Origin: Haplodiscus bocki | Lineage: Eukaryota | Length of the DNA stretch: 64,000 bases | Direction of reading: 5' to 3' | Assembly: GCA_965655095.1 (NCBI GenBank) | Contig: OZ296659.1 | Span: forward strand, 9,486,001-9,550,000 | In this document: piece after piece, positions 17,541-48,018 of the stretch | Numbering within the stretch: position 1 is the first letter of the stretch | Layout: each line of letters starts with the position of its first letter | Position numbers and translations under genes: made by a program | Notes under the pieces: model-generated | Seen by the model: the letters and a program-made list of their open reading frames with translations, nothing else | What the model was told of the DNA's origin: nothing | The model's database searches: none

Positions 17541-18966
17541 AGCAATGTCTGGGAATCAATTGTTACAGAATTTGTGCAGAAGATTAGATGCAGCTTTGAG
17601 TGACGATGAAATCTCCAATGTTATCGAAGACATACTTGGCTTCACCAAAATTTTATGTAGAAAGAGGAAATTCCACAATTCTATCCTTGAATCAATGAAA
17701 AACCCGAACTCCTCACAGTCATTGGCAGAAAATGAATACGAATGTTTCAACAAATTGCGGGCAAAAGTCTGTCAGAAGATCTTACAGAACGCTTCCAAGC
17801 CAATTTCTCTGAAATGTTTGCAAATATTTTTCAACATTCTTTGGTGCCATTCGAAATTTTGCCAAGTTCCATTGATTTATGACAAACTGTTTATGAAAAG
17901 TTATGAAATGCTCATCGAGTCAGTTTTGTTACATGGCCCAAAAATTGTGACCAATGTTTTCGTCAGAAACGTGAACCAAAGGTTGGACTATTTGGTTTCG
18001 TTTTATCATTTAGCTACAAGCTCAAACTTTGTGGGACTTATTGCGGAAACTTCTGCGGACGAATTCTCTCATTACGTGAAAACTTTGCTGAAATTGGCAC
18101 CTCCCAAAACCCAGGAAGGTTATGACACACTTTTCGAGAAACAAGAATGCAATTCTAAAGCTTGTTTGAAGTTTCTAAGTTTTGATAATCTTAAAACGAA
18201 GTTCTCAAAAACGTGGCTCTCAGTTTTGGCAATTCCTATGGAAATATCAGTTGAAACTTCGCTTCTTTTTCATTTGTCGAACGATCTGATGCCATTGTTT
18301 TCGGACCCTCGAGATTTGACCGACTTTCTGTTCATAAAACTCGAATCAACGTTTCTCAAATCGAGATACCTGTCGCTTGATTGCTTGCAAACATTGGTTG
18401 GTAAATACAATTTAGAGTACCCCGACCTTTATGAAAAGGTTTACGAAATGTGTTCTGAAGAAGCATTCATGTTGAATACATGTTCGGACAAATTTCTTCA
18501 AGTTCTTCGAAGATTTTTGCTTTCAACCAAACTTTCATACGAGCTCTTGGTCAAGTTTTGCCTACGACTGTCGGAACGAGTTTTGAAGAGTGAAGCTGTG
18601 ACTGCTTTGAAGCTTATGGCGATGATTGACGAGATTTTAACAACGCATAAATTGTTACCGACCAAAGAACCGAATTTGCGAAGGAAAAAACCCAAAAATT
18701 CCGAAGTGGAAGAAATTTGCCAGTCTAATTATGTGAGCGAAGATTTAATAGACACTATTTTGCGAATCAAGGAAACGATGAAAACCCATTATCACGCTGG
18801 AGTAAGACACGAAGCTTCAAAGTTGGGTGAAATTTCGACAAAAGTTAGGCTGACCGATGTTTTAGAAGTTGAAGATTTGTCAGCTACGATGTTCAAACTC
18901 GCTGAGCAGAAAGTTTTGAAAGATGAAATCGTTTTTGTTGCTAAAACTGAGTTTCCGCTCTCATGA
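17541..18966 (+). CDS. NOC4L: Nucleolar complex protein 4 homolog (NOC4/NOC4L, CBF/Mak21 domain; 40S biogenesis), main exon
   Basis: Intact ~475-codon frame with FSKTWLSVL, MPLFSDPRDLTDFL, LSLDCL, YNLEYPDLYEKVY, FLLSTKL, KFCLRL and ILTTH. AATAAA at 19008-19013. The track start (TTG at 17485) lies in the polypyrimidine tract. Confidence 0.88.
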
Positions 18967-19964: not shown

Positions 19965-20135
19965 AGTGGTGGTAGTAATAGAAGGGGGGTTTAGAGGCAC
20001 TTATGACTCTCCATTCAAGGTAGTCGAGTAAGAGCCATTTATTGCTCCGGAATCTTAATACGTAACCAACTCTTAGTTTAACTTAATGACAAATTTGACA
20101 GCTTATCTAGTTTAGTTTTCTGACAGATTTCAAAC
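19965..20135 (+). repeat. Polinton left terminal inverted repeat
   Basis: AGTGGTGGTAGTAATAGAAGGGGGGTTTAGAGGCACTTATGACTCT...GGTAGTCGAGTAAGAGCCATTTATTGCTCC...AATCTTAATACGTAACCAAC... is the reverse complement of ~33705-33875 (about 85% identity by eye). Confidence 0.95.
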
Positions 20136-20800
20136 ATTGAAGTCAAGATTTCGCTGTGGTTCAAATATCGGATAATATACCAAAACTGATGAAAATGTTC
20201 CAGCCTCGTCGTTTTCTGAATTAATTCCTTATTGGAATCCAAAATTTACCAGAACGAATTTAAAGATTTTGACCAATTTGAAAAAATCAGCGCATATTGT
20301 CTCAAAATTTCGAAAAGTGAACTCAGATAGAAGAACATTGAAAAAAAGATTCAACGATTGAAATAGATTATACTAGCAAACGGTTCTGCCGGATCAGCAG
20401 ATCGAATTTTCAATCGTTTCAAGTTTTCTTAAAATTACGTTTTTCAGTCACTCTTCACGCGCAGTGAATGAAGCAAGCGAGTGAATATGGCGGAAGACTT
20501 GACAATCCCAGACACCTCAATCAGCAGGATCATCGTGACGCCAAAACACAATCACTGAGCTTCATTTATTTGCTTTTTGTTCGCTCGCTGTGTTCACTTG
20601 CTGATTTCATTCTTTCGGTAACGACGTGAAAAAATTTTGATAGTTTTGAAAGCTGAGACACGGTTCACTATCTCCATTTTGAAGAGGTTTGTTTGAAAAA
20701 TCTACGAAATCACTATATACTGCAATTTCGAACTATATTTCGATGAGGATTTTGTATGAGCTGACAGTACAGATACGTTGTAAGAATCCACTGTTCTTCA

Positions 20801-23800
20801 ATGTTCCTCATTAAAACGATTCGATGTGACGAATGCCAAAAAGTTTTCACATCGAAACGCATTTTGTATCAGCATATTCGCCAGAAACACAATGAAGAAC
20901 CAACATTGCATCTACGGACTTTCATTTGTGGCCACTGTGATCAAAGTCTGCCGTCTTCCTTCAACCTTCTTCGCCACATTCGAAATATTCATAATTTAAC
21001 TAGTAATTTCAAATGTCTATCATCTTCACTTGTATTCGGATGCGCAGATTTGCTTGAGAACTTGAAAGACAGATCCATCTCAAAACTTCGAGCTCTGCTT
21101 TGTCTCAACGCCCCGTCTCTGACCATAATTTAGAAACTTCTTGTGTTCAAACTTCAAAAAACGATAACTTCGAAGTTTTTCATGTGAACATCGAACCCAA
21201 AAATGTGGAACATTTCCAGTTTTAACTTCCGATGAACAGAGCATCATATCTTTTGTTAACGAGAAACTGCCCGTGTGCGGGTCAGAGACAGTGGGGATAA
21301 GCATTCATATAAAACTTTGAAAAGCATTGGCAGACCACTTTGTAACAGTGTATTTCATTTCATCAATGGTGCGTGTAGCCCATCAGTGGCACACAGACGA
21401 TTATACCAACATGATTCATAGCTTGCTTTCTCAATGGAATGATTGTTATTCTGTGGGATCTGAATAGGTTATCGAAACTCTGAAACCTCTGGAGATCAGG
21501 ATGGTCGGTCCCTTCAAAGGAACTGCATCATCTTTTATTGAGACCCCAACTGAACTCTAAAAAGTCTACGGAAGTTTGCTTAACATCAAGAATGAGAATG
21601 AAATTTGCTTTCTGTACAGTGTACTTCCTGGTTCATTTTCGCAACAAAATCATGCTGAGCAACCGTCTTCGCACTCGCCTTTCATGGATGAGCTTGCATT
21701 TGAGGTACCTAATTTTCCAATGAGTTAGAGCAAAAGACTGACATTTGAGAAACGAAACAATGTTTCAATATCTGTTTATCCTTACAATGAAGGCAGGCCT
21801 TTTAACGTTTTTTGTACAAAAAATCGAAAGTCTCGACAAAAATTCAAACTTCTGCTGCTGGTCGACAAGCAGAAAAGTCACCAACGCCTAATCAATAACT
21901 TCTCAAGTTTTGCGCATCATTTGATCGGTCGTCGCGAAAAAGGTTGAATGGTCCAAAAACAACAATGCGGCAACTGTATGCAGCCAATTGTGAAATACAA
22001 CTTCCACCAGCACGTCCAATTTTGTGAACACCAAAAACCTCTTGGAAAAAATGCCGGAAAACAAGAAGAAACTGGCACACGAAAATTGGCAAGAACGCAA
22101 CTTAATCCGTTTGTTGTATATGCCTACTTGGAAGCCATCATTGTGGCGTCCAATGAAGAAGGTGGAAACAACAGTTCAAACACAATTGAAACTGAACGCC
22201 AATACCATGCCAGCAACGACGTCGGTTTTTATTTCGTGTTGAACTGTTTCTGTTTACAATTTGCATGTCATGTATCATATCTCAAGAAGAATCTAAATTT
22301 GTTTTTGTTTCAGCAAAGTTGACTGAGAAGTCGGAGTTCTATCGAGGAATCGAGTGCACTCCGAGACTTATGAAAACTCTTCGCTCATGGTTCAACTGGA
22401 CTTGTGGACGGCAACAGACTTTTCGATGGCTTCAACTGTCTCAGGCAGAGCATCAAAAGTATTTATCCCCGCTTACAGTTATCTGTTGTATTTGTGGAAT
22501 GACAGTATCTCTCTTGGAGCGTGTTGTCCATCACTGTCATATAACTGGTAAAATTTTTGGTGGGGCCCACTCTTCCTGCAACTTGAAGGCGCGATCCACG
22601 AACTTTCTTCCTTTTGTCCATAACCTATGACGGTACGATGCACATCACGTTATCAAAAACATGAAACTTCTCCCTGAAGAAAAATTGGCTGCAACATCGC
22701 AAGCAGATGAGGTCTAAAAATCTTTCAGCATATCTGTTCCTGTTGGGTCCCATATCACGAAAAAAGGTAAAAACGTACGCGTTACAAACAACCGTAGATT
22801 CTTTGATAGCTTCCAGTTCATGTCGCAAAGTTCCGAATCTCTGTAAAAACTCTAGAAGCGGACGATTTCATCCTTTAGAATATATTTTTTTCTACAACAC
22901 TTCTGAATGAGGACTGAAACCTGCTTACTCACAAAGGTTTCTACCCATATTGAGTCCTGGACTCTTTCCAAAAGTTCACTGAATCCCTCCCAAGATATGG
23001 CAATGACTGCAAAAATACCTTAACAGGCAAAAATGATATTTCTCAGAACAAATTCTTTCAAGCCTTAGACATCTACAATATGTTTGGCTGTGGCACTCTG
23101 AGAGACTATCATGATGTGTAATTACGCACAGATGATGTTTTGATTCTAGCGGATGTTTTTGAAAAATTTCGGCAATTATGCAAGAAAGTGTATAAACTGG
23201 ATCCAGCTCAGTTCTTTTCTGCCCCTAATTTGAGCTGGGAAGGAGTGCTGATTACAAATCGCGTTGATTTGGGTCTATTGACCGACATCAAGGTGTTGCT
23301 GTTTTTCGAGAGGGGATTTCGGGGAGGTATTAACGGAATTGGTGAGCTGCGCCAATTTCATGCGAACAAAAAGGACGTGGACAATTTTGATGAATGAAGA
23401 ACAAGTGTTTATTGTGCTGCATTCTTTGATGTAATTTCTTTGTATGCCGATACTATGCAGCAAACTCTACCCTTGGACAACTATTATTGGAATGAGACAA
23501 TTACTTTGGTTGATATCCTTTCTACTGGCCATGATGCAGTGATTCGATACATTGTCGAAGTTGATATCGTACATCTTTCTTCTTGACATGACTCTCGCAA
23601 AGATTTACCTTTTGCGCCCGAAAAGCTAGTGACTCAGGAATCATGGTTATCTCCCTACGTCGAATCTGTCAATGTTAAGTTACCAAATGATGCTAGAAAG
23701 AAATTAGTTGAAACGTTAGATGAGAGTCGCTACGTCTGTCACTACCGTAGCCATAAAATTTTTGTGCGTCAGGGTCTGAAGGTCAAAACTTTTCATCGCA

Positions 23801-24855
23801 TTTTACAGTTTAAAGCAAATGGTTGAGAGATTGCGTTTTGGAAAACTTAAGATGAGAAAGCAAGCAACAGATGGTTTCAGAAAACCTTTTGCAAATTGAT
23901 GAGCAACGCTTGTTCTGGAAAAACAATGGAGAATTTGCGCAATCAACGAAAGATCTTTTCTGCTAATAACGAGAAGCGCGCCCACCAGTGTTTGATGAAA
24001 CCCACATTGAAATTCTATCAAACTATTCATGGTGGCTTCACCTCTGTTTCCTTTACTCCAAGTAGGAATGTTTGGTCAAAACCCACTCCCGCAGGAGCTT
24101 CGATACTTGATTTGTCCAAACTGTGTCAAAAAAACCACTACGACGAAATAAAACCGCGCTTCGGCGACACATAAAATGTTTATTACAAAAAAACTGACTC
24201 ATTGTTGTATAGAATCGAAACAGAAAACCTTCATTCGACACTGGCAACCTTCAAACATCTGGTGGACTTGTCGAATTACCAAGGAGAGCCTTTCTAAGAT
24301 GACAAAACCAACAAGAAAAACAACTTGCCATGACGGATGAATTACAGGGAAAAGTTTTGAAAGAAACTATTTGCCTGAAGTCATAAATCTGTAGTATTCA
24401 ATTCGAAGAGGGCGTCAAACTGAGTGCAACAGAAGTGCAAAAAAGTGTCAAGAAAACGCTAGTTCATGATTTGTGCAAAGAGTGTTTGCTGAAGAAAGGA
24501 AGAGTTGAACGGTCCATGACCCAATTGAGATCCAAAAATTATCAAATTGTTGTCAATCGTGTGCACAAAGTTGCAATGAGCAGTTATGATGACATACAAA
24601 ATTTACTCGATGATAGTTTCAAATCGCTTGCATATGAACACTGCGAAGTTGGCAAAAATCAGAAAAACGAGGGTATTGTTAGTTGTTCCACTAGATATTG
24701 CTTTTTTCCAAAAGCATAATCACTTTTTTCGAATCATAGGTTGTTGCGCTTCCTCAATAATCAGTCACATTGATGATGAAAGTGACAACGCCAGGTCGTG
24801 TTACTCAACGATTGGTTCCACTGACACAATAGAAGACAAAACTGATCATCTCTAG
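20801..24855 (+). pseudogene. Protein-primed family B DNA polymerase (pPolB) with N-terminal C2H2 fingers and an inserted endonuclease VII/HNH-type domain, disrupted
   Basis: C2H2 fingers CDEC..HIRQKH and CGHC..HIRNIH; CCICG..VVHHCHITGKIFGGAHSSCNL; HNL*RYDAH; DSFQFM; KGFYPY; LADVFEKFR..DPAQFFSAPNLSW; ERGFRGG; FDVISLY; KLMSNACSGKT; KTDS; VHKVAMSSYDD. Confidence 0.95.
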
Positions 24856-25184: not shown

Positions 25185-25439
25185 GACCGCTTTGATGAGA
25201 TGGCCGCAGAGTCTGAGTAGGGTCAATTAACAAAAATGGTTTGCCCATTCATTGACTGGGAAGCAGAAGAGTTGCGAGAAGAAGATATTACGCGCGATGT
25301 CAATAGTATTCTAAGTATCATCGCAAAAAAATGGTCTAAACTTGTTTTCTAGAGTAACAGCAGTGAGTCTGATAATGGAAACTAACGAAATTTTATTCAT
25401 TGAAACAAAAAATGATTATAACAAAATTTGAATCCAAAA

Positions 25440-26035
25440 TTACATTTTCAATGCATGTTGAATTAGAGTTTAACTTCGATCTCTGAAACGGTGGTCAAAT
25501 TGGTAAGGGAGCTAATAATAAAACACTGTACCTTTGAATGGAAACTTCCTCTATTGCTACGCAACAAGCTGGGAACGTTTTCCGCGAATTGAATTTGTTT
25601 TAGATAGGGAGCCTTAAACAAACTGTTAAGTCAGCAGAGATTAGAACTAGGGTTTTGCAAAGAAGAGTTTATCTCGAAACTTCACGTTGATTCCGCTGAA
25701 AAATTCGCCAACCAATTGTTTAAACTTTTATATCATTTGATGGGCGAACCGAGTGGATCCCAAACAAAAAAGAATCATCAATTTGCCGTTGCTCTTTTTG
25801 TTTGTTTTTATATGACGATGTACACTAGCAAAAGCCAATCTCGCCCAATTTCGAGGTAGGCGGCATTGTTTACTATCTGGTAGAAAAAAAATTCACTGCC
25901 TGCCGCAGCAGTGTCCACCATTTGCCCAATGTCTTGAACCCAAAAGAAGTCGTCAAAAGAAGCCACGCCAACAAAATTCCGAGTAATACCGGGACAAAAA
26001 CCTTTGGCTAGACATATTAGGGTGAAAATATTCAT
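25440..26035 (-). pseudogene. Adenain-like (C5) cysteine maturation protease
   Basis: FVGV, IVNN...GRDWLL (G-x-H-W with H>D), VWDPLG (from FDSxG) and LQNPSSNLC* (Q-x4-5-CG, with GGA>TGA). Confidence 0.85.
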
Positions 26036-26039
26036 TGGC

Positions 26040-27373
26040 TAACGGTGAATTTTTTGAATTATTCCTGGAGTTGTCAATAAGAGTTTGACCAAATCGTTCT
26101 CCAATTAAAACTAGTTCGACTGTTTCTGGTAACGCTTGGCTGAAAGACAATTTCCCTGTTATGCCTGCTCCGGTCAAGGCGGGAGGGAGGTTCAAATTTT
26201 AAAAGCCTTTCCTTGTTGAAGTTAGGTCGAACACGAGGTAGAAATGGTTTGCCTGATAATCTTCCAAAGTAGTTCCGTTGCCGTTTGCTCAAATGCCAAG
26301 GCTGTTAAGATGTTGTTGTGCTGTCGTGTGTCGTTTGGTGCATCCAGCGGCGTCCCTGCGAGGGGTAAACCATTGCCTCTCAGAAGCTCCACTTTGTGCA
26401 AATCAAACATTTTTTACCTGAAGGGCGTTGAAGCAGTCGTTGTTCCACGGAAAACAAGTTCCATGTCATAAACGTTTTCTTCCAGAAATCAATTCACACC
26501 GAAAAGGTTTAGGTTGAATTCCCTATGTATGGATTCACTGTGCAACTTTTTGTGAGCACTCACTCGATGCTAATCTTCACATTAACCGACAAAACAGTCT
26601 TCTTGACAAACAGCGAAGCTTTTTCTACTACAATTACGGACGGATTTTTATGGAGTGCTCATACTTCAGCGTTATTCAAATCGATCAAAGTTTTGCAGAG
26701 CGCAGTGATTTGGCGATCGATAGAGGCGCAAGTGCAAAGTCACGCCCGGTATTAGTAAACGTTCGCCATCCAAAAAGTCGATATGTTGAGCTCTGTATAG
26801 GTAAAGTGAACAAATACCAGCGCTGTCGGTTTTTTTATGATTTTATCTTTCAGTTCAAGGTTCTTTTCTTTGTTTGTTCGATACTGGTGTCCTTGACAGA
26901 CAGCCCAAGTCATTATGCCATTTGGATTTGCGGTTAGTTTTGTCTTGGCAAACACCACGTGATGATAATTGTTGTTGTTACTCGAAATAAGTTCTTCATT
27001 AGGAAAAACTCAAAATTGGAAATTAGAGAATGTAGGTTTTATCTCGAGGAAAGCAGATTGTCTGGCGTCACGGCATCACTTCCGTTTAAGTTGTACCTAT
27101 TGCTTTCCAATCCCAAACAGACTCGGTCCAAGTCGATGCAGTTCCTCTTGTCGGTTGTGACAAAAAAAATCAAGCTGAGGGCTACTGCAACCTACATGTG
27201 GAAACGCTTCTTGATCCAATGATTATTCATAATTGATTAGTACAGATGGTCGATCAGAAACGTCCAGAGAACTGCGGGTGACTGGATAAGCAAACTCAGT
27301 GGAGCATCCGAAGGAGAAGTTTTGATTGCTGCTTGCGCCGCTTTAACCCGTCATCACCACTCACTGATTCCAT
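26040..27373 (-). pseudogene. Double jelly-roll major capsid protein (Polinton MCP/hexon-like)
   Basis: N-terminal SSLDV..P...QLDF..D...IDL; STFWMANV...LTANPNG; C-terminal GKLSFSQALPETVELVLIGE...IDNSRN, typical of Polinton MCP. Length ~440 codons. Confidence 0.85.
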
Positions 27374-28315: not shown

Positions 28316-29329
28316 GTTTTACCTGCTTGAATTGCAACGTTAGATTTGTCCGTCCACGGCTGAAAAACGGAATGGGATCGCTTGTCTCACTTCTGACAGA
28401 GATGGTTAATGAATGACTGGAAGCTTTCATATCACGACGCCATTCAGGTTTGTTGGAAGTTTGTTGAATCCTTTTCCTTTTGACAGGCACAGCTGTGAGT
28501 AGAGCGATTTGTGTTGCTCCCAATATTTTGTTTTGAACCAAGTCATAGTAAACGAACATTGTGTGCAACCCAGCTGTTAGGTCAACTGGATAATGACCAG
28601 TAGCCTCGTTTTTGCCCCTTTCTTTTTCTTTTAACTATTTCGCACTTGATTGGGATTCCTCATTTTTGTGGATTTTTTCAGTTGCGTTGTTTTCATCGTT
28701 AAATGGGCAACAGTCAACTAAATTTTCCCAGCCCAAAATGTTTTACAGGTCTTGAGGAACAACTTTGAGGAGGAACTTTTTATTTTCTGTTTGCGATCGT
28801 TGAACGAAATTGAACTTGAGTAACTGCGACGTTTCGCAAATGTCCTAGTCAAAAAGTGATTCATCGGTGTCCCAACCAACTTTGCTGCAGAAGTTGTTGT
28901 TCATCGATTGGGTGATGGAATTCAGAGAAGTAATAGCCTTTCGTTACTGAGAAAAAAATTTCCGGTGCAAATGCCTCTTCCTCAAGCGTTGATTTTGCTC
29001 TTTTAATGCAGCTACGGGGATGACCTAAGGAAACTATGCCGCTATGAAAACGCGAAATCTTTGCAAAGATGGATTTTGAGACCGACCCTTAATTTTCCTC
29101 CTGGCCTGCAAGTAGCTGACAGCTAAATAGAACTTCGGTCACATTTTCAATCAAGTTTGGTCATGATAGTTCGACTATGGCAACTTCCCATGAACCGTGG
29201 AAGAACAACGATTGTGGTAGGCGAGTTGTGAACTTGAAGGTTTTTTTTCCGCGAAAGTTGTCAACGAAGCTTATGTGACTAAGTTATTGGTGAAGCTGTC
29301 GCTTTGATTCCTTTTCGTAGCTATTTCAT
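28316..29329 (-). pseudogene. Minor capsid protein (penton, single jelly-roll)
   Basis: N-terminal FTTRLPQSLFFHGSWEVAIVELS*P and C-terminal MFVYYDLVQ..LG....LL..VP...ISVRSE..DPIPF..GRTNLTLQF. Confidence 0.88.
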
Positions 29330-29344: not shown

Positions 29345-30332
29345 TTGTCGTCGTCCTCTTTTTGAAAACGCAGCAACTCGCTCTCGTAGAAGTTTCTGCG
29401 GATCAACTCTAGTTGTTGGAGTTTCTCAATCAAAAAGTGGGGAGATTCAATGTTTCGACTGCTTCAATTCGGAAAACCTCTTCAGTGAATTGTGTGAGAT
29501 ATCCACATTGGAAGAGATCTATTTTTCGGCAAATTTGAACATGTTTTCCATTTTTCAGCTTTGCTTTGCTGATTGGGTCACAGTTATAATGAAAAATTAC
29601 AAGAGCTCTGTCGGATTTTTTGAAATATTTCGGCGCCAGTTTTGTCACGCAGTTAACCGTAGAATTTACAATGCTAATGCTTACCTGAAGTTTGTCAACA
29701 AACACTTCAGTGTTATTTTCGTGGATATGCTTAAAAAAAATTATGGATCGAAAGTTTTTTTCAGCAAACTCCGACTTTTTTTCGCCGCAAGTCGTATAGA
29801 GGTGAATACCCGACTCTTGGCAAAAGCTAGAAAAATCGGGTGGAAATTCACGTCCCTTGTCAACCCATATCTTTTCCGGCCACGGTGATAGAGCGTTATG
29901 GCCCCGGCAATACTTGGGTTGATAATCACTGTGGCTACTTCTAACGCGCTAAATATTATCTTTTTAGGCTTGAAAACAGGCAGCTGCTGTTTTTCGTTGG
30001 AGTGGAACAACCCAGATGTTTGTATCGACAGCTTCGAAAAAGACTTTTTTGACTTGGTTGTTTTTAAAGGATTGCAGCATGTCAGCCAACTCAATTGAGG
30101 AGATTTTATTGAGTCTATAACTTAGAGTTTTGAGTCGTTTAAAGTTTCAGTGGGCTTGTTTGAATTTTGCGTAGGTCTCGCTTTCTCGTAGAAAATTATT
30201 GACTTCGTTGTAGCTACAGTTTGACTGCAGTTTCAGTGATATTCGGTTTCCGCAGGGAGCAGGATTTCGACACGACGTATACAAGTTATGTAAATCACTG
30301 TAGGTGATTGTTGCATGTTTTTCTGGTACCAA
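29345..30332 (-). pseudogene. Retroviral-type (rve, c-integrase) integrase
   Basis: LY...NPA..G..L.....EVNNFL..ETY..FK; LADM; ID...W.VPL; GKE-like; RFVDKL...NS..N..TKLAP; GYLTQFTEEVFRI...PTF. Confidence 0.9.
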
Positions 30333-30339
30333 ACGACGC

Positions 30340-31130
30340 CTTCTTGTACACTTCGAGCACGAAAAACTGTCACATTATCTTTGGTACTGTGTAACAGCTG
30401 CCAGGTCACTACATTTGTTTCGAGCGCAACCGCAAACGTTTCACCAAATGGGAGGATGCTTGAGTGAGCCTTTGCCAAAAGGTTTTTGGCAGTTACCAGA
30501 GGTGTATTTAACGCTTTTGGCTCGCGCCTTCCGTCGTCCAACCATATCTTTCACAGGTGCCAATTCGTGGAGCGTTTTCGAGACGATTCGAAGATGCTTT
30601 GCTCATACAGACGCTGCAGTGTGGCGTGCTCAAAGCTTACCTGGGCTGATTCAAGCGGGTTTCTCTCGTCTTCGTTTACGCTACTCCTCATTTCCGATGC
30701 TACCTTTTCAGCAAATGTGTTTGCTAGAAGGTAAACTAATAGAGGCAAACGTCTTACCAAATCGAGGGCATTCTTTTTGATTTTTTAGTAGGTGTTTGTA
30801 TATCAGACAAAAAGTCCAAAACTGCTTTTCCCGTATCGCGATCATGTAAATAGATTCGTCCAGAGACATTGTTGATTGAAACAAATTCAGTTGTGCTCAA
30901 TTTCCGACTTCGCTGCCTTCGCCGCTTCGTCAGCTTGCTCGGCATCTGACCCAATGGTGCTGACGGTGGTCTTCTTGCAGAACCTGGTAATCAAATTTTT
31001 ATGCGCGCATTTTGTCGCCGTCGGAAAGTCTTCGACACTGCTCGAAGTGTTTTGCGCAACCGTCTCACTCACGGCGCTTTCTTGAAGGTTTGGACTTTTG
31101 GAAGTCTGTTTTTCAATTGAATTTTTGTTT
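30340..31130 (-). pseudogene. Unassigned Polinton ORF(s) between ATPase and integrase
   Basis: Minus-strand fragments (GRIYLHDRDTGKAVLDFLSDIQTP; RKRSTNW) are co-oriented with the flanking genes. No family recognised. Confidence 0.4.
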
Positions 31131-31134
31131 TTCT

Positions 31135-31590
31135 TGTTCTGAAGCGAACCATTTGGCTAACATTCAGCTCATTTGTCTTAGAACGTTTTGAATTCTGGAA
31201 CAGATTGTGCTTTAACGCTATCAAATGAATAATGCGATGTCTTCCGGAACTGACTAAGTTGAGAATCTATTCTTCTTTGCAAGCTTGGTGATACAAATTG
31301 GCAATTACCACCTGGTTAGCAAGTTTCAAGCTACCTATTTTCTTTCTGCTGACCAATTCCAATTAGGCCCTTATGAAATTTTATGCTTAGTTTTCCAGCT
31401 ATACAGCTAGTTAGAACAGTATCAAAATTTATTTCGTAATGACTGTAGAAAGAGAAATTTTTTTCAAAAGATGGATTGAAGATTTTGGTTTGATTCATTA
31501 ACATATTTGATACTATTTGTGTTTTACCACTTCCACAGGGCCCACAATTGAGATGAAACCTTGTGTATTGGTACAAATGCGTTTGTTCAT
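31135..31590 (-). pseudogene. A32/FtsK-HerA-type genome packaging ATPase, frameshifted and 3'-truncated
   Basis: MNKRI...FISIV(fs)GPCGSGKT (Walker A); VVIANL (decayed Walker B, from VVIDDL); SGRHR..HL...HNLF..SK...LN. Confidence 0.9.
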
Positions 31591-31935
31591 GGTCTAGGTT
31601 CTGGTACCACGTAACCGATGCAGGTTGACAAGATACATAAAATTCCTGTTTGTTATGAACTGTTCTCGGCAAAAGCCAAGTAAGCAATCGAAAACATAAC
31701 AATCGCAACAATAATGAAGTACTGGAAGAGGAGCACTGAAAAAGACATTGAAGTGTTCCAGAACAACAACGGCACTTAAATTGGAAAGGAGGTCTCTTTC
31801 TTTCGTCTCTGTCGAAAATGAAATCGTTTGTTTTAACATGATCAACCAAGTCCACGGCAACAAAATTGATTGCTGATTCATTTGTCAATTCGGTTGATAG
31901 GCTGGTGGTGTCCTCCCTCGATGCGACAAATGGTT

Positions 31936-32145
31936 TCAGAAGGTGTATATAATGACTACCGCTTTAATCGACTGGTTCACTCTTGCTATGTCGTTTAATG
32001 TCATCCGAATGGTAAAATGTTTCCCTTTAATAGCTTGCTCAAAGAAAATTTTCGTATCCTGGGTCAAAAGCGAAGCCTTCAGATAAATTTTATCGGAAAT
32101 GGGCAGAGAAAATGTCAACGCAGGTAACTCTAGCGCAACTGACAC
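31936..32145 (-). CDS. Small accessory ORF, possibly PC4-like ssDNA-binding fold
   Basis: ISDKIYLKASL..DTKIFFEQ...FTIRMTLNDIARVNQSI fits a beta-beta-beta-helix pattern. Pattern resemblance only. Confidence 0.3.
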   Translation of the reverse strand: MSVALELPALTFSLPISDKIYLKASLLTQDTKIFFEQAIKGKHFTIRMTLNDIARVNQSIKAVVIIYTF

Positions 32146-32589
32146 ATCGTGCTCGGTAAATCATTAGATCATAAAAACCCAAATTGTTCACACAACTTCC
32201 TCTGGAAGGACTTCAGATGAAGCCAGTAGCCTAAACCAGATAAATGTCCGAGAAGCATATTGTTCACTAAAAGTGCTCTTTCCGTAAGCACATAAATGGA
32301 ACCGGGAGCAAAATTATAGTTTTTTCTCACGAAAGCAAGTTCGTTGTGGAAGATTGCATGCCAACGGATATTTTTGAAAAAGTTCATCGAACTCTCCATG
32401 CTACTGTTTCCGGTACCCATCAACCCACCATACGGAACGAAGTCATTTTTAGCATGGAAATTTATGTTTTTGTCCAGACAGTAGTAGCACGCTGCGAGAA
32501 AGGTTTTTCTTTTCGCATTTTTTCGAAAAAGATACTTTACCAGATTTAAATTGTCTTCTATTTGCTGTACTTCAACTAAGTCTCACATA

Positions 32590-33500
32590 AATTAAATTTT
32601 TTGAAAAAACACTGCTTTGTTGAACACGTTCAATATAAATGAATTTTTCCACACAAATTGAGCGTTCTGATCTATAAAGGAGTATACATTGGGGTCAAAT
32701 TCAAAATTTTTCTCATCGCAATTGTCAAATACAGAGTCGGAACATTGAGTGCATTCGAAACACTGGCAATAATCATTAGAATAGCCGAGGTCCACAGCAA
32801 GACCAGTGTTATGATGTGAAACCTTGATGTTGCCCAAACCGCGTTAAAACAAATTGATGAAATCATCCACACAATCTTTGAAAACTTATTTGATTTTTGT
32901 AGCTCTGCCAGTCTTTTAAAGATTGCTTTTTGGCGTCTCTATTCCCGTTAAACTCAGCGTAGCAAATGCGCTGGATTATTCATACAGTTTCGAAGGTGCA
33001 TCCTAATTACTTGGTTGATTTCGCTGGCTGAATCGACCTCAGTTTCTCGCCGTGTATGGAATGATCGGTTGTCACCACAGTTAGCCTCTCGCCGTGAACA
33101 GTTTTCTGGGTACGATTTTTTGAACAAATCGACGTAGTGGTTTCGAATCTTGAGAGGTGATGTTGATCGTGTCAAATTTTCAGCTATGCTTCCTTAGACA
33201 AACTTCTCTGCTCCGACAAAAGATGCCAGATAAAGGAGAATGTGGTAGTGATCTTCATTAATCTTTGAACGAATGTCTTCTGTTTTAAAATATATTCGTG
33301 TGTTGTGTGGTGTCGCATACTGTATTCACAAGGCGTGCTACCAAGCAGGTTTGGTAGTAAGATACAAATTTTCTTCGGCAATTTTACCAATGCCGGGTTG
33401 GCGGGACGGGTTGTCATCCGCAAGCAATGAATTCTGGTTGTTGGACTGTGCTAGCTGCGATCTGGTTAAACATCAAATTGGTCCTCTCTTTGGGGCATCG
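32590..33500 (-). pseudogene. Accessory ORF with HUH-endonuclease-like motifs and a Cys-rich C-terminus
   Basis: One frame with 3 internal stops carries LYLTT (33367), DHYHILLY (HYH at 33250-33242) and HYVDLFKK (Y at 33136). CQCFECTQC follows in another frame. Confidence 0.45.
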
Positions 33501-33704: not shown

Positions 33705-33875
33705 TGTCAAATTTGTCACACTAGTAAACTAGATGAGCCGTCAAAGTTGTTATGAAGTTAAACTAACAGTTGGTAACGTATTAAGATTGGGGAGCAATAA
33801 GTGGCTCTAACTCGACTACCCTAAATAAAAAGAGTCATAAGTGGCTCTGAACCCCCCTCTCTTACTTCTGTTACT
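33705..33875 (-). repeat. Polinton right terminal inverted repeat
   Basis: ...GGAGCAATAAGTGGCTCTAACTCGACTACC...AGAGTCATAAGTGGCTCTGAACCCCCCTCTCTTACTTCTGTTACT, ending in ACT. Confidence 0.95.
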
Positions 33876-36899: not shown

Positions 36900-39800
36900 T
36901 CTTCTAAGGACGTAACTTTAGGACTGAGAGACACCTCTGGACGGAAAGCCTGGATAAAACTTACAAAGTCCGACTGGTGGGATCTTTTGATTCAATTCCT
37001 GATAAGCAGTCTCGAAGTTTATTAATTTTCCTGGTACGTTGCTTCAAATTCAAAAAATCGTAGTTTTTTCTACAATCACGTCGTCCTCAGTTGATGCACC
37101 TAGTTTTTGAATAGGGAACTTTCCTAATTCTCCTCCTTTATTCTTTCACACTTCTCACCAAGAATATTTTCAATATTGTCAACCAACAAAAAAACAATTA
37201 CGTTAATCTCCATCACCACCAGTTGAATCCAAATCTTCCCTCATCCATCCCCATGGTTGATTAATTTCTTTTGGTCAAACAATCAGTAAGTACTATATCT
37301 GTGTCCCTCCTCATTCAAAAACTTCTTGTAAGAATATCATTCTCTTACCATTAAAAACTGATTTGGACCCGTATAAAGTTGTTCTATACCAACAAGACTT
37401 TGATTATTTTCAAGAGATTCAAGACAACCAACCATTTTATTTATCAGCTATTTTGTTTATAACAGAGTCCATACTCACACGTTTGAAACCCTTTTTTTAC
37501 CGCAAGGTAATTTCTATGTTTTTGAACAAATTCTATAAACTTTTTGAAAACAAATTCCTCATGACACTAGTCTTGATAGCGAAAACTTCCCTCAGTTATT
37601 TTCGCAAATTGGCGTATTTCTCTCTGCTTTACAAACTCTAGAAGATACCGTATTCGATATTCGATTTCGTTTTCCAGGAATGGCCCTACTAACCTAATTA
37701 AAAAATTTATAGCTTTCCATTCCCTTTGAGATCACTTCAGCCTGGTAGCAAATCAGAATAAATCGAAATTATTAATCCCCTGTCTTCTTCTCAGTGTTAT
37801 TTAGGAACTTTTTCAGTTTTCAGACAGAACGAGCTTTTTAATTTCGATTTAATAAAAATTCTACCTATTTATCTCCCATCTTTGACTCCTTCCCTTGATT
37901 ATTCCCATCTCATAAACTAGCAAATTTACCAGCAGCACAATCAACCCCAAATAGTCCAAAAAACCTGACGAAAACTCTATAGCCACTCTTACGAAATATT
38001 CTTGATACGCTACCCCGAAATGACGTTCAACGATATCACTTAGTTCCATCTGTAAACTCTTTCTCCGTCCCCGAACTCCATTAGTTTCGCACCCATCCTC
38101 TTGATTACCTCCAGCAAAAAACAGTCGAGAACACCGCCTCAAATACCACAAAGTGCAATTTCTACATTTAGATACTAAACCTCTCCTAAAACCATTCAAA
38201 CCAAACCTTGACTTATTCATGGACACATAAACCTCCTGTAATCCTTATATATCGACCTCTTTCTTTGGATGCAATTACTTCAAATACTCATCTCACTGAA
38301 CTTATACTTGCTTCTTCTACATCGAACCCTCCGGTACATATTCCTATTGAAACATCTTCATGATAACCAAAGATAGTTTTCGCAAATACACTCCCGTGTT
38401 CTGTTTTTACGCAGACCTCCTATTTTGGGAATTTATTTGTCCTGTACTTTTCTCTGCCCCATTTTGTCAATCATATAGTTTTGCTGAAACAATTTGTGCT
38501 TCACTTTCTATCAGAATAAGAATTTTTGACGCTACTCAAAATAGACACCATCTGAAATTTTTCCAGAATGCTATTAAAGCTCGTACTACCAATCACCTCA
38601 TCAGCTTGTTCCTGAATCTAGATATTCAGAAGTGTAGCGTACCTGGAACAATTGGAAAACGGCTTTTTTTTGCTATTTCAACCGATTGACCAGCTTTCTT
38701 TTCGCTGAATTTTCTCACGGAAACTGATAACCAAGACTGATCGTGCTTTTCAATAATAATTTCTCTCGAACAGATTAAGAGAAAGACTATTTAATGTAAA
38801 GCTCGAGCTGTAGCACAAATTGTTCAAGTCAAATCTCATAATGCAATTCCTATTTACGATTGCCGTGTTGAAAATATATTCCATTATTGACGTCCCGAAT
38901 TCGGCTCAAAAGCTTGAAACTGAGAAAAAGTAAATATTTCCTTTTCAAGGCCTCCCATTTAAATTGAATTATATAACCAATGAAAGAAATTTAAACCTAA
39001 ATCTCACTGTCGATGAACCTGTTTTCTCATTTGGAACCTTAAGTAATTGTGTTAACAGAAAGCGTCTTGCTCCTGAGATGATACCAGAAACCTCAAATAA
39101 TAACCATCAGTTGGAACCTCAAAAGTGCTACTGTCACCAATCATGCTTTCAGACACGACAACAACAAGACCCAGTCAAAAGGGAATCACTGCATATCATT
39201 AAAAAGTGCATTCCCTGAAGAAAAAATTGTAATTCTAGCTCACGATGTCACCATGTTTTGAGAAACGAATGAGAAACATCATCGAGCAATTTTTCGTTTC
39301 CAAAAACGATATGATGCACAACTTGAATTTACTATATAGAAAATTTTCTAATGCTTTTTCGTAAGCAACCAAGATTTACCGAACAAGCATACTAAGTTTC
39401 CTTATCTTTCACCACATAAATCGTATAACGCCATTCTTCAGCTTCACGTTTTCGAAACAGAAAAGTAATGTTTCTCCAGGGCAGAGATCATTTTCATTGG
39501 ATAACCGTAGTAGATAGAATCAAAACTTTAGTCATTTTTCTTGATGCACAATCACAATTAAACCTGGAAATAATTTCCAAGTTTCACCAAATCCCAAAAA
39601 CCACTCGCGATGAATTTCCCTTCTTTTTCCAGCTAAACTCGAACTATAAATCTGAAAACTACCTGCAAGCGTTTAGCCCGCCTCCTAATGTCAATTAAGT
39701 TTTTGATAACTTAGAAGAATCTTTTCAGGCTGCTTCTTTAGATAATATCATGACAGACGACCAATTCATCAACTAATGTAAGTACTCTGATGTAGGATGT

Positions 39801-42800
39801 TCTGAAACCACCAATGTGCCTCATGAAACGCAGCGAAACCTTAGATTGTATGTTCCAATGAAGATTCAAATTAAAAAGCCAAAACTGAACTCTCATCAGA
39901 ATTTCCCGGAAAAAATTTTGTTAGGGCGCAAGAGTGACAAATTGCTTTTTAGATGCTCGAACCGGGAAAACAAAAAGCAGGTCTGTTTCTCCGTCTGAAA
40001 GCGAAATCAAACAGTATGCTGACTCAGAGTTTGGAAAAGGTAACAGTCAATTGCTAACAAACGTTTTTTTTTAATTTTACACTCTTACCATACCGAGACC
40101 AGCATGTGACACTAGCAATTACCCTTGCAAAAGCAGACATGGAAAAAATGTTGGACTTCTCTTCTCCAAACCTATATTTAATCACTTGATACAGATCATT
40201 CGTGTGTGAACTCTAAATACAACCTACACGATCCCATTTCTCCCAAACGAACACCAATTTTTGCTTGGTTTTCGATAATAACCCCAGTTTTTCCCTAAAA
40301 AGTTCAATTGAACACTAGGAAAACATACAAACATACGATGAAACTTGGTCATTACAAGGGAGTTCTATTCTTTCCTTAGTCAAAATATACCGAGAGTCCC
40401 ACAAAAAAAGATTGAAATCAGATGTTTTTTCGTTTCAAATCCTTCCACAAACTCATCGTCCGTCAAAAGGTTCTCATGACCCCAATACACAAATTGGAAA
40501 CCTTGTTTTTATCCTGGAAAACCACAAAACGACACCATACTATTCCAGCTGGTATCGACGACTTCATTTTTTTTGGAAGAAAATTTTGAATCACAAGCTC
40601 GACCTCAACCAAATACAGTTTATAATCGAAGGAAAGTTACACAAACAGTTTTTCACAAAACAAACCCAAGCATTTTTGAGGCGCATGATATGTAGTTTCC
40701 TCTGACAGACTGCCAATCAATCCATTTCTCCTACTGGATCTTGCTCAAGTTCCAATAAAACCTCGATATGTCGTTTCGTCACAAATTTTTCAGCTGGTTC
40801 CAAATTAACACTCTTTTCTTTTTTTTCGGAAACTGTCGACATTCATCACAGGAACGGTTCAAAGACTTAAAGTTGATGTGCAATTATCGAAAAGTTTATG
40901 CACAACATAAACCGGGTTTGGGTTTTGTATATTTACCGTTTCCATTTACATTAAAGCCGAATGCCGGATTGAAAAAGCAAAACCAATGTTGCCACACAGA
41001 AAAAGATTGTTGAGTTAGAACACATTGGGACATTTGAATGAGTTGAAATAAACTCTGCAAAAAGTAACGAAGTTGGTTCAGTATTTAAAAACTCTAAAAG
41101 TGTCATCTTAAGAAATGATACGCATAACGTTGCTGTTGAATAGCTACGCCAGATCGTTAGTGAAAAACGAACCAAAACTCGAGAAAATTGAAGATGTTCA
41201 AGGAAAAAATGGAATGACTTGGATTAAAAAAGATGTATGTAATTCCTCGAAGCTATAGAAACCTTTCAAAAACATTCCTAGCAGGCATCTTATTTCAGCT
41301 CCGCTCTATAAGTTATTTCACGATGAAGTTTTTCTCAACTGGAACAAAGATCATGAATCTGTTTTCGTTCAAATAAAACAAATATTAACGGAAACGTAAA
41401 AACTGACACTTCCAGACACAAAATTTTTATTTTGTTGTATCATGGTTGATGCCTCTGCACTTTGTGGTGATTGCACTGTTTCTGTCCAAACTGATGATCA
41501 AGATCAAACGGAAGCTTTTTCATACATCTCCCACAATTTTGCAAAAGTGAACAAGAAAAAGCTATTGCGTTATGTGGATCAAGCACCCTTGTTTACATTT
41601 TAGAAATGTACGTTTCTTAGTGAGTGGCTCGGAACATCAAATGAAAGTTTTCACTTATAATAAACCCGTTCTATTTCTTTTTGCCCGTGAAAGCGATGTA
41701 AATTCATGCTTTTTCTGGAATCACAGTGCTTTCACACAAATTTCCCAGCTAGTAACAGTTTGGATTCAAACTCGAGTTTTTTCACCAGCTGAACTGTGAC
41801 AAAATATTCTCCGGTAAACTATTGCAGTACCACTGAAAAATACACAAAACGAGTACTACTTCTAGAGAAATTCACACACTTCCCTCTGAAGGTCTTCCAA
41901 ACATCCAGGAATTTTAAAATGTGATCAAGGCTGAATCAATTGTAACCTCAATTTCCAGTGACACACACCGAATCTGTTGCGAAAGTTGCAAATGCAATTT
42001 CGCCTTACTTTTCTTTGAAACAGACCACAAAAGAACAACTTCACCCACTGAAGATAAAATTTCTTTTAGAGGTTAACACCGTTTTGAACCACAATGAAAA
42101 AAATATTAACTGGAAATTATTGACTATTTGCAATGCATCCCCATTGTTGAACGAGGCCGATGTTCAAGCCGTTTTCCGTCTCTAATATTGATCTGAAGAA
42201 GAATCAGGATTTTTTGCAGCATTAATTTCACAAATGAAACTATACGACATCAGCAGAAATCTGACCCTGTTCTCAAAATTATTAGATTGCAGCTCACTGA
42301 CACCTCAACTCTAATAGCCCACAGAAACGTTCCTGTTAGAAGAAACAAAGCATTGAATCGCTTATTTGACCACTTTGAAGCTTTGCATTTCGTTAGAGAA
42401 TCTAATAATCATTCAAGGGCCCCTAACTCTGAATTTCGAAACCACCAACCCTGGAACCATCTCGCGAAAACGTACGTTTGCCTACCTCTGAAGTTATTGT
42501 TTAAACTACAAAACATATCTAGTTGATTTTTTTCATCTTCATGCTCAAGACGACACATATAGTAAATTGAAACTTTGCCTTTGTTACCTTGGTTTTTGAA
42601 ATTGGAGTGAATAATCACCAGAACACTTGATATCATTTCCAACAACTAAAGCTTCTGGAAAAGATATAGAAAATGATCCTCAATTAGATATTGCTAAAAT
42701 TGCTGAACACTTCAATCATCGTATAAGTATAGACGCAAAAGGTCCAACAAAGGCTTCTTCAAAAGACACTTCTTCATTTGCCGTTTGCGATGGCTTTCTT

Positions 42801-44500
42801 TATGCAATAAGAAAACCGACCCTGCAAAAGTGATGCTGGAACTGACGTGGATGTTTTCTCAAGAAACTCAATTATTGAGTGTGGCCCACCAAAAATAAAC
42901 TTTTCAAAGATAAAGGCTCCGGATGTTTTAGCAATCTAAATGCTAACATGCGTTTCTGTTTGAAAGTAAAAACAGTCCACGATATCCGCAGACTCCTTGG
43001 TTTTACAGCTCGGTTGAAAGCCAAAACAAGTTTTTTGGTAAATTCAATCGTACTGGCTCCCAACACAAAACTCACTGGCCAGATCAAGTTGAATTATACA
43101 CAGTTACACATAAGACAAAAAAAGCTTCAATACCTCTATATGAAAAGATTTCTGAAGAGAAACGTTGAGTCGCTAAAGAATTGAATCTGGAAATCACTCG
43201 CAATCTAGAACAGATTTTGCTTCAACTAGTTTCGTATGAGTTCACCAACTCAATCACAATACTACGACAGATCAAAGCACAGTTGTTCAAACTTCTTGAA
43301 AAAAATGAAGTGTCTCCGAAACAGTCTCTGAAACAATTCAACTGGTGCTTAAAACTTTCGGTCCTCAAATTTTTTGGGTTACGAGATAACCAAACTTAAT
43401 CGGAATTGCCCAAATCAAGAACGTGATCCAGTTTCCATGCAGGAGAACACAAACACAACGTTTCGCACACATTGTTAAAGTTATCACGACATGCATCATG
43501 CAAGGTGATTTTCAACGCTGATCATCAGCAGCAGCAACAGCAGCTGTGGCAGCAGGCCCCGTACCACACCTGCCGTTTTTCATCCGCACCGTTTTTCCCA
43601 CTGAACGCAGCGAAACCCCTTCGCGAGAACTGGTCTTCAGCATAAACTTATAGTGTGCCCTCAAGACCTTCCCGAGAAAAAAGAATCAAGTCAAGCGACT
43701 AGCCCAATTTTCATTGTTGGGCAAAATACGAACAGTCTGAGTAAGGCGCAATATTTTATGCAAGATACTCCCCGAACGCCTGTACAAAATGAAGCTATGA
43801 CCGCGTCGTCCTCTCGAGATGGAACAAAAGTTCTGTGTTTCCTTCTAGAGAATGTTCTGTGTTTCCAGGAAAAGAGCACTTGAAACAAGACGGGCTTCTA
43901 TTTGGCTGCAACTTCTGAACATTGCCTCGACTAACACGGAAGATTTAGTAGTTTGAATGTGTACTGTTCGGCTGCCACAAAACGGCAATGACCATTTGAA
44001 AGTCGAAAAGTCAGCACCTGGTACCAAAGAAAATGACGGCCGACCTGTCTCAAAAATGCATTCAAGTGTCACCACTGCGCGTCCAATGAACCAGCAACTT
44101 ATTCTTGTAGATTTTCCAACAACCTAAACATGTCATTGCCATTCAAAGCATCGTAACTTGGGCCATTGACAAGTTTGTTCACATCCACTCATTCTAAGTT
44201 GAAGGGATATTTGATACGACGACTTGGATCTTGATCCAAAGCTTTCAAGACACCTGACTTGCCTCCACCACACGAGATAAACCGAGGCTTGACAGAAACA
44301 GCGGACTCACCTGAGCAACCAGAATACGCTCTCTGTATACTGTGTCATTTACATTTGGGCCCTCCCAGAGCCTCAAAAGTAGCCTTTTGATTTTTGGCAA
44401 AAACATTAATTCTAGAAAAGACAGAGTACAACTTAGACAGGACGAAAACTAACCTCAAATGTGCTTGGAGTGTTACCAAGCAATGATGAACAAACATTGA
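36900..44500 (+). mobile_element. Heavily decayed Ty3/Gypsy element(s)
   Basis: RNase H MVDAS (41442) and VFT(D/Y)(H/N)KPV (~41647); integrase FNHRISIDAKGP (42711), GPP..DKGS (~42885) and P..TGQ (~43060); RT-like LKL..NYRKV (~40870). Outer boundaries are uncertain. Confidence 0.7.
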
Positions 44501-44599
44501 AACAAAAAGTATAAACATCAATCATCCTATTCTGGTCGCCTCAAAACTCACATAGCTTCAACAGACTCAGACGCATTGGGCCAATATGTCAAAATGATT

Positions 44600-46600
44600 T
44601 CAAATGACTGAAAACTACAAAACTCACGCTAATATGTCAAGACTAAAACTGAACTCAGATTCAGAAACAGAATTGGAGATAAAACACTAATTTGTGTCCA
44701 ATAGTCTTCCAGACCCCAGAACTCGCCCGAACTGCGTTGGAATACCATCAGTAAATCGATGTGATTTTGCGTCTTACGTTTTTGAGTAGTGCAGCCAAAA
44801 CGCTTCTCATCCACAGCACCATTGTAATAATCGCACCTTTGGTCCAACTCAGCCACGTCATATTTCCTACTCATCCAGGGCGCCTTCCAGCTATTCACCA
44901 TGAAATTTTCCGAGCATTCTTCGTTTGATCAACTCGAGGATTGTACCGCTTTCTTCAGCTGTTATCAGCTCTAAGGTGATGTCGTCGCTCAAAGTTGCGC
45001 CTCAACTCTGACTACTCTCAAAACCATGTTCACATTCTGCCCACACAGCACGCAGTAAAAGCAATTTTTGTTTCTAAGGCTGTCCTCCTGTCTCGTCGCA
45101 GAAAGAGGAACAAAAAAGGCTTTGCAGACAATTTTCTGCAATATCCAATCCAATTCTTAATGTCGGTCGTTAGTACGGGCCAAATTGTATGTCTCCTTCT
45201 CATATCTTTCTTTGGACTAGGACATTTCCATCATCTGCTGCAGCATCAAGGATCCATCAGTGCAACTTTACTGAGTGTTGCCAGCGGTTTCTTGAACTCG
45301 ATGAATGTCGATCCCAGCAAACATATTGTAGCCTGCCCCTTGTCCTCCAAATCAGTCGGCAGGCTCTTGAACAACTTCTCCAATGGTGAACAGTGAATAC
45401 TGCGAGAACGAAAACCACACTTTTCACTTCCATCTAACTACAGTCGATAGCGTGAAGTGACTTACTTTCAGCCCCCTCTTATCCCAACGCGGTTCCCCGC
45501 TCTATAATTCACCAAGAAATCCTCCAGCATTCCACATGTTACCAATGCGACTTAAAGTTCATCAAATCGACCAACTTCAAAATTTTGATCCGAGCGGAAA
45601 TGCATTGATTGCTGACTGGAAAACAAAAGGGTTGGCGGGTTGAGCTCACAGAGTTCAGTTAATAGAGTTTTCGTTGACTGACTAGCGTAATTGTTTAAGT
45701 GCTGTACGTCCCTACCGACTTCAGTTGCAGCTGGAAATCAGGTGCCAAATCTTGAGGGACCTTCTGCGTATCTGTACCATTTGTGGGAACACAAGCAAGA
45801 CCAACTAAAACTCGTGCCAAACATTTGAAATCTGAAAATGCAATGCTCTCAATCTCTGGTACACTCTTGCTCTCTCCTGGACTCACTTCACATTGAAAAG
45901 GTCGCTTTGCGGGTGGTGTATTTTCATTGGCGACCTCAACTTCAAAATTTTTCTCTCCCTGTCGAGAGTATGGCCTGCTGGCAATCACAACAAACTTGAC
46001 TTCTGATTACTGTAGTCTTGCACCATGTTCTTCACTAGAGTGGAAGTTTGAGCAATTTCTGTCGCACCTGAAGACCCAGCAACACTATCACTATTATCAC
46101 AAGAAGCTGTTTTTGAACAACGACGATTGTCGGCAACACAGTGGAAGAAACCCCTGATCCCCCACAGTTCGCGACAACACTTCATCAGTCTTTTCTTCTT
46201 CCTGCTCAATTTCACCCATGCTCAGAGTTTCAATTCTTTCTTCAATGAACTTGTGCCAGCTTTGCATCCTCACTACCACTCGACAAGAAACACTCTGCTT
46301 CACCTGGTGGTATAACTGCAGCCAACACTCTGGGGCTAGTCGTCTCGCCTCCAACTCCCTGCAGACTGACGGGTTGACAAACAGACTTTTTGTTCGCGGG
46401 AGAAAAACCTGATAAAGATTTTATAGCAATATCATTCCTCGTTCTGGCCTCCGTTTGGGCAACGCTAGTCTATTCTCTGTCATCAGCAACCTCAAATGAA
46501 TTGGAATCGTTACCTAAATGGGGAAATTTGATAAATTTTCATGGTAAGGTTTTGCAACTTCACTCGTTTTTTGAAAATGGATGCACTGAAACGGAATTAC
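44600..46600 (-). mobile_element. BEL/Pao relic (gag to integrase, largely deleted)
   Basis: SW..KAPWMS (from APWMGG, ~44880), an AADD/NPAD-like RNase H end (~45235), and gag-like LAPECW...WHKFIEER (46097..46354). Confidence 0.55.
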
Positions 46601-47904: not shown

Positions 47905-48018
47905 CTCCCAGTACATCGGTAAGTACCTTTCTCCCAGTACCTTTCTCCCAGTACCTTTCTCCCAGTACATCGGTAAGTACCTTTCTCCCAATACCTTTCT
48001 CCCAGTACATCGGTAAGT
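47905..48018. repeat. Minisatellite of CTCCCAGTACCTTT and CATCGGTAAGTA units
   Basis: Near-perfect 14-bp units nested in a 54-bp higher-order duplication. Confidence 0.9.

Follow-up and report, generated by a model that had tools for sequence, protein, structure and literature searches.

The window, meaning the whole 64,000-nucleotide stretch analysed here (positions 9486001-9550000 of its contig), contains a decayed element of about 13.9 kb with terminal inverted repeats (TIRs) near 19,974 and 33,866 at its bounds. The inverted-repeat arms are found at 20013-20130 and 33709-33826, match at 85%, and have outer ends near 19974 and 33866. The right TIR (33709-33866) has an AGT-like end and a G tract near 33866, together with a 12-nt word that occurs twice, 40 nt apart; the left TIR occupies 19974-20130, and the window copy has no recognisable target-site duplication (TSD). 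Inward from the right TIR, all on the minus strand, lie the remnant of a gene with a predicted HUH/Rep fold (32652-33384, corresponding to codons ~46-291 of the 291 that sister copies have), a PLA2X-like gene (32175-32609), a small Cys-rich ORF conserved in position and recognised with markers from sister copies (31593-31957), and remnants of a packaging ATPase that is A32-like in one sister copy (31075-31665), a retroviral-type integrase located by a sister-copy marker match (29412-30506), a probable minor capsid protein or penton (28776-29292), a probable major capsid protein (26443-27009), and an adenovirus-type protease (25412-26104). Opposed to these, on the plus strand, is the remnant of a protein-primed DNA polymerase B (pPolB) with N-terminal C2H2 fingers (20765-24719), in which the core match spans 22721-23958 and the outer limits are set by ORF fragments. 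The capsid candidates are conserved ORFs at the expected places across copies and have no Pfam match; from their position we take them to be the penton and major capsid genes. The PLA2X-like gene has no relevant Pfam match, and its label is in part our assumption from a YxGPG...HD motif. The label also rests on the available text of a published description of such elements (PMC8502044). The small Cys-rich ORF (31593-31957, minus strand), which lies between the PLA2X-like gene and the ATPase, is present in all lineages examined and has no Pfam match. In one sister copy the integrase (L028:2291-3514, minus strand) opens with a Cys/His cluster, which we take to resemble a PHD finger, and Pfam shows only the rve domain.

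The element is a Polinton, as the initial annotation had proposed. Searches of the 1.5-Gb genome identified sister copies encoding pPolB (PF03175, E 3e-14, with a 58% match in the window), an rve integrase (PF00665, E 1e-8), an A32 packaging ATPase (PF04665, E 5e-8) and a C5 protease (PF00770, E 0.0016, below the cut-off). Three sets of loci yielded TIR pairs at 8 of 10, 10 of 10 and 2 of 7 members, respectively, and in 11 of all 27 loci the ends are strictly AGTAGT...ACTACT and flanked by a perfect 6-bp TSD; the TSD has been lost from the window copy. The recurrent order, within which some copies have individual genes undetected, is TIR, Rep-fold gene, PLA2X-like gene, small ORF, ATPase, integrase, penton-like gene, capsid-like gene, protease, opposed pPolB, and TIR. 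A length of ~15 kb, AGT...ACT TIRs and a 6-bp TSD are shared with Polintons/Mavericks (adintoviruses) as described in the available text of two studies (PMC8097293, PMC8502044), as are pPolB, the rve integrase, the ATPase, the protease and a PLA2X-like gene.

The gene at 32,652-33,384 on the minus strand is real yet broken in the window copy. A deletion of ~270 nt at 33387/33388 took its start and first ~45 codons, the frame changes near 33307, at 33059-33054 and at ~32920-32900, and stops occur at 33196, 33009, 32982, 32888 and 32846. Intact sister copies have 283-304 codons, many with one open frame of ~291. The initial annotation had read an HUH endonuclease beside the TIR from four peptides, and its description of the locus is confirmed in part: ENLYLTTKP (33373-33347), RIYFKTE (33298-33278), DHYHILLY (33253-33230) and NHYVDLFKK (33142-33116) do share one minus-strand frame, that frame carries three stops (33340, 33328 and 33196), and a TIR arm lies at 33709-33826. 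The Cys segment placed in another frame (CQCFEC, 32768-32751) is the C-terminus of the same protein, and the absence of a Walker A motif holds for intact ORFs, which end at 283-304 codons. The three Rep motifs assigned to these peptides fared differently. Motif II is genuine: the HUH-UUU motif at 33230-33253 (minus strand), placed on the central strand by homologue alignment and model, has H90 in 36 of 37 homologues and H92 in 36 of 37, although the H-U-H-UUU word by itself is within chance (2 in the window against a mean of 3.9 in 30 shuffles). The peptide taken for motif I is off-frame, tblastn with natural sister proteins placing the homologous frame over 33384-33307 elsewhere; the true first strand belongs to the N-terminal ~45 codons deleted from the window copy. 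The DLFK proposed as a one-base relic of motif III lies on strand 4, outside the catalytic helix, and all 36 aligned homologues have a basic residue in its column, never Tyr. Positions 33083-33115 (minus strand) cover the last part of strand 4 and the helix in which Reps have their catalytic Tyr, a helix without a conserved Tyr here. Alignment of homologues also placed an H...CxCxxC cluster, which may form a second metal site, in the C-terminal part at 32751-32822 (minus strand).

A DNA search of the genome returned at least 73 matches to the gene (40 of 115 candidates scored). The gene starts ~0.5-0.8 kb inside the element end and is the first gene within one TIR. Since the loci with TIR pairs had been picked via the gene itself, a second survey was begun from the ATPase, in which 64 of 148 matches were tested: the top 30, and 34 chosen because the gene had not yet been seen alongside them. 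The gene lies upstream of the ATPase in 62 of the 64 loci (30/30 of the top matches and 32/34 of the others) and is neighboured by PLA2X in all 62; the two ATPase loci without it still retain PLA2X. At least five lineages of the gene can be distinguished, with 24-50% identity between them. The initial annotation had allowed that the segment might be a separate Helitron or parvovirus insertion, absent from sister copies. This reading is refuted because sister copies carry the gene, whole, at the same place, and its shared position across at least five lineages and the ATPase-selected loci assigns it to the element. No helicase is attached to it, and its pairwise identities track those of capsid (rho 0.70) and integrase (rho 0.64), with a lower value for pPolB (rho 0.28), the pairs being non-independent; the probability left to an insertion in this copy is vanishingly small.

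Comparison of diverged B lineages gives dN/dS of 0.19-0.21, indicating purifying selection, while the values of 0.45-1.7 among near-identical copies are read as post-insertion decay. Between lineages dS is saturated and pN is 0.31-0.44, and the gene evolves faster than integrase and capsid. Position, conservation and selection are best explained if the gene has long been part of the core set of this Polinton clade, handed down vertically. Database searches recovered 43 and 99 relatives, the 43 being without Pfam domain or name; none of the cluster members examined has a name. P0076, P0081 and P0090, the most distant relatives, are 22-25% identical, and the best genome match of P0090 is 30%. 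From JGI metagenomes came one 1.5-kb contig, on which the genes are ordered in the same way. Scans of IMG/VR returned no relative of the gene, the ESM Atlas nothing for the distant member P0090, and a weak search for a fused or longer form no relative of 533-2000 aa.

The fold of the encoded protein was approached by prediction. A full-length model built from 18 sequences had a pLDDT of 56 and no confidently modelled C-terminal domain, and its PDB matches were generic ferredoxin-like folds, with Reps included among its viral matches. An AlphaFold model of the N-terminal 190 residues, built from 37 sequences, reached a pLDDT of 78.6 and a pTM of 0.79; its elements run strand-helix-strand-strand-helix-strand-helix-strand, and HUH falls on the third, central strand (89-96). 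A wide structure search of 48,161 chains, with 50 rows inspected, ranked pMV158 RepB first (3dkx; Z 6.3, rmsd 3.5, 107 aligned), followed by AAV5 Rep (Z 6.2, rmsd 4.5, 138 aligned), a circovirus Rep (Z 6.1, rmsd 3.2, 96 aligned) and SV40 LT (Z 6.1, rmsd 4.2, 105 aligned); HUH Rep or origin-binding domain (OBD) chains account for 18 of the 50 rows. In a second structure search ranks 1-14 were all Rep or OBD, among them the JCV LT OBD (Z 6.8, rmsd 3.1, 103 aligned). A predicted Rep fold, a five-stranded antiparallel sheet with flanking helices, is thus consistent across structure searches at Z 6-7, and the proposed HUH fold can be upheld because HUH Rep and origin-binding domains rank first for the AlphaFold model, with modest scores. 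Among the best 50 BFVD matches, 9 of the 11 named rows are Rep or NS1 (best E 5e-4), and ESM features place Rep_OBD, Viral_Rep and E1 DBD at 0.83-0.87, which serves as a lead only. The profile of the family aligns colinearly with that of 17 pMV158-type Reps through strand 1, the strand-2 His, HUH and strand 4; none of 60 column shuffles and one of 60 block shuffles reached its score of 29.4, and the hhalign probability is only 12.7%.

Against this, Z values of 6-7 lie in the range seen for common arrangements, and unrelated ferredoxin-like folds reach 5.7-6.0 in the wide search. The HUH likeness might then be convergent, in a ferredoxin-like zinc-binding protein of other origin, as the modest Z values with generic folds close behind and the want of a sequence-level family match would allow: the protein matched no Rep when its sequence was searched against Pfam, PHROGs and PDB. 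Such convergence is judged distinctly improbable, given that HUH-class chains head both structure-match lists and align over residues ~7-170, that the strand-1 pattern, the upstream His and HUH-UUU follow the same linear order as in RepB, and that BFVD and ESM features agree. Each line of evidence is modest; taken jointly they make it very probable that the N-domain descends from HUH Reps. Two further candidates were set aside: reverse gyrase, the best PDB sequence match (E 0.013), covers only one His and was taken as chance, and PF01719 searched against the genome gave 7 matches, all below the cut-off and none with a Polinton marker.

The residues kept in the alignment fall into two clusters. 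The first comprises H71 (35/36), H90 and H92 of the HUH motif, and a Cys six residues before HUH (32/36); the second comprises H238 (31/32), C253 (29/30), C255 (29/30) and C258 (29/29). In RepB, according to the available text of PMC5030251, the metal is held by His39, Asp42, His55 and His57, and Tyr99 attacks. The H71/C83/H90/H92 set may represent the old catalytic metal site closed as a four-ligand, probably zinc, structural site; the C-terminal domain would be helical and bind a second zinc through H...CxCxxC. Where motif I would be expected, a hydrophobic strand (12-22) aligns with RepB strand 1; Thr is not conserved in it, and the window copy has it deleted. The initial annotation had called for conservation of both His and the Tyr to be checked and had named loss of the YxxK Tyr, in advance, as evidence against the nuclease it proposed. 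Both His are conserved, and the Tyr is not: at columns 140-146 none of the 37 sequences has one, with 1/37 at column 139 and 4/37 at column 147, and the RepB catalytic Tyr aligns to columns 142-144. An active tyrosine nickase is therefore not supported, and on its aligned sequence the protein fails as an active Rep on motif III. Near the RepB Tyr position Glu144 is present in 33/37 sequences, and Tyr136, at or just before the helix start, in 30/37. Tyr136 is not universal: lineage E, whose gene is intact and sits among Polinton genes, does not have it, nor do three distant relatives, and the five sequences without this Tyr that are in the tree fall together on one side of a branch (support 74/95). 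Lacking a cutting residue, the protein probably binds the DNA of the element rather than cutting it.

An alternative is that it remains an active, non-canonical HUH nuclease, with the His triad on a catalytic metal and the Cys as a removable ligand, which would nick or trim element ends during excision or replication, the nucleophile being Tyr136 (lineages A-D) or a water activated by Glu144. The His triad resembles His39/His55/His57 of RepB in the available text (PMC5030251), and the frequencies of Glu144 and Tyr136, together with selection, are compatible with catalysis. The patchy occurrence of Tyr136 speaks against it, and a fourth protein ligand would argue for a closed site. The element ends offer further counter-evidence. 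The initial annotation had envisaged a nickase acting on terminal hairpins, which were not borne out: none of the four TIR ends examined folds better than its shuffled versions (z +2.3 to -1.2). No end-to-end joint occurs among the joints listed, and a head-to-tail concatemer was rejected, the one tandem pair checked being a 99.9% duplicate including its flank. An active nuclease is on balance unlikely, and its stricter form, a Tyr-independent, metal-dependent HUH nuclease with a switchable Cys and a Glu-activated water that processes Polinton ends, is quite unlikely. Were the latter true, it would supply excision, or the freeing of ends, before protein-primed copying, and would constitute new chemistry in the HUH superfamily.

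Several other features of the ends were recorded. The TIRs share an AGTAGTA-G-tract end and then differ by lineage. In lineage-A TIRs a 40-nt unit, a possible iteron, occurs two or three times in tandem (L029:1380-1520; window 33780-33840), whereas TIRs of lineages B-D are without this unit; one joint steps back 40 nt. In the TIR-proximal 260 nt of 11 ends the word TGACAG, given here as a bare count, recurs close to where the TIR stops on its inner side in roughly half of them, across lineages. At L028:7648-7815 the TIR has more than 10x the contig depth of the gene, and the inner boundary of the TIR shows loose ends; this pattern hints that many non-autonomous elements share the ends, depth not being a copy number. 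The two lineage-E copies on contig C3 (132266500-132286499) lie 15,256 nt apart and are 99.9% identical including the upstream flank, and represent either a recent segmental duplication or an assembly duplicate.

The reading we prefer, to which we give about an even chance, is that the gene encodes a DNA-binding protein of Rep descent that does not nick, is probably stabilised by zinc, and works at the element termini or at a terminal promoter. The protein of ~290 aa would have taken its N-domain from an HUH rolling-circle Rep and lost the nicking tyrosine; its most likely role would be sequence-specific DNA binding, as in the origin-binding domains of E1 and LT, with the lineage-specific inner TIR or the terminal promoter as target. 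Once bound, it may help pPolB to start protein-primed replication, or alternatively may switch on the downstream run of PLA2X, ATPase, integrase and capsid genes, with integration left to the rve integrase (6-bp TSDs). The missing Tyr, the intact lineage E without Tyr136, the lack of a terminal hairpin, core-gene status, dN/dS and the fold are all in favour of binding, and a precedent for the switch from enzyme to binding protein is described in the available text of PMC6668415. HUH is retained here, which could mean catalysis, whereas E1 and LT have lost all three motifs; Tyr136 is kept in most sequences, and the first, shallower model ranked generic folds first.

The constant company of PLA2X admits another reading, in which the protein is Rep-derived and has been repurposed as a host-modulating, RNA-binding or virion-associated factor working with its PLA2X-like neighbour. 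Adjacency in 62/62 positive loci and evolution faster than that of integrase and capsid are in keeping with it, as are three of 17 database proteins (P0152, P0127 and P0128) in which the gene runs in frame into PLA2X. Among 20 genome loci, however, the gap length keeps the two ORFs in frame in only 3, and each of these gaps contains a stop, so that HUH-PLA2X read-throughs look like decay, and a fused gene is rejected for the main lineage. The known members of the fold, moreover, bind DNA origins, and repurposing of this kind is considered improbable.

Among known systems, pE194/pMV158 RepB (PF01719), the best wide-search match, is likewise a stand-alone Rep fold without a helicase, and shares with the protein described here the HUH motif preceded by a His where strand 2 ends, a similar strand-1 pattern and a putative helical domain behind; the present protein differs in having no YLxH or catalytic Tyr, a likely fourth ligand of Cys rather than Asp, a C-terminal Cys cluster and no Pfam match. 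The OBDs of polyomavirus LT and papillomavirus E1, which give equal or best Z, also have an HUH-derived fold without catalytic Tyr. As far as the available text of PMC6668415 goes, which also sets out the HUH motifs, E1 and LT gave up all three motifs on being converted to a binding role, and each is joined to an SF3 helicase, whereas the protein here retains HUH and stands alone. Mriyaviruses and Zora-type PLVs are dsDNA elements that encode capsids and a stand-alone HUH protein, and an rve integrase is frequent in the Zora group (PMC11253617; bioRxiv 10.64898/2026.06.19.733378; available portions). Mriyavirus HUH motifs are intact (PMC11253617), and the HUH protein of both groups, which are near Nucleocytoviricota, is taken as a rolling-circle driver; here, in contrast, the HUH gene accompanies pPolB and is without the Tyr. 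Other pPolB viruses carry genes derived from parvovirus Rep, namely the aviadenovirus ORF2, an NS1 homologue (PMC10433990), and bidnavirus NS1, which lost the nuclease domain and kept the SF3 helicase part (PMC4061559), again as described in the portions available. These viruses carry the SF3 helicase part, whereas the Polinton gene corresponds to a nuclease-like part without helicase. Parvovirus NS1, CRESS Rep and Helitron RepHel have a fused SF3 or Pif1 helicase, of which the protein here has none, and rolling-hairpin replicons have terminal hairpins, unlike the four TIR ends folded here.

A search of the literature, with subscription papers, Repbase and supplements mostly outside its reach, listed no paper whose title or available text describes an HUH-fold gene in pPolB-integrase Polintons. 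For vertebrate Mavericks eight core genes are listed, none of them HUH, and 'HUH' is absent from the text available (PMC8097293), whereas here a Rep-fold gene is fixed beside the TIR. The available portions of PMC11296320, PMC11071296 and PMC12721341 likewise hold nothing on an HUH-fold gene in Polintons, and the unnamed 'Adintoc' genes of PMC8502044, at least as presented in its accessible text, could include the Rep-fold family. The family has no Pfam model. If its descent is as proposed, it would tie small rolling-circle replicons to Polintons via the nuclease domain, bidnaviruses and aviadenoviruses showing the helicase half. It would also add a case of an HUH Rep turned binder, at an intermediate stage in which the metal histidines are kept, the Tyr is gone and there is no helicase. 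We know of no settled account of how integrated Polintons are freed or how their ends are recognised for protein-primed replication, and a fixed, selected Rep-fold gene beside the TIR is a candidate for end recognition.

The surroundings of the element in the window were also surveyed. Just outside it, at 17476-18966 on the plus strand, is an intact single-exon ORF of 496 codons with a CBF/Mak21 domain (PF03914, E 3e-6), probably a host gene. Tandem repeats unrelated to the element are found at 27-240, 47905-48008 and 63042-63516, with units of ~27, 14/26 and 31 nt, respectively, and a run of negative GC skew at 37001-46000 may mark another repeat or element.
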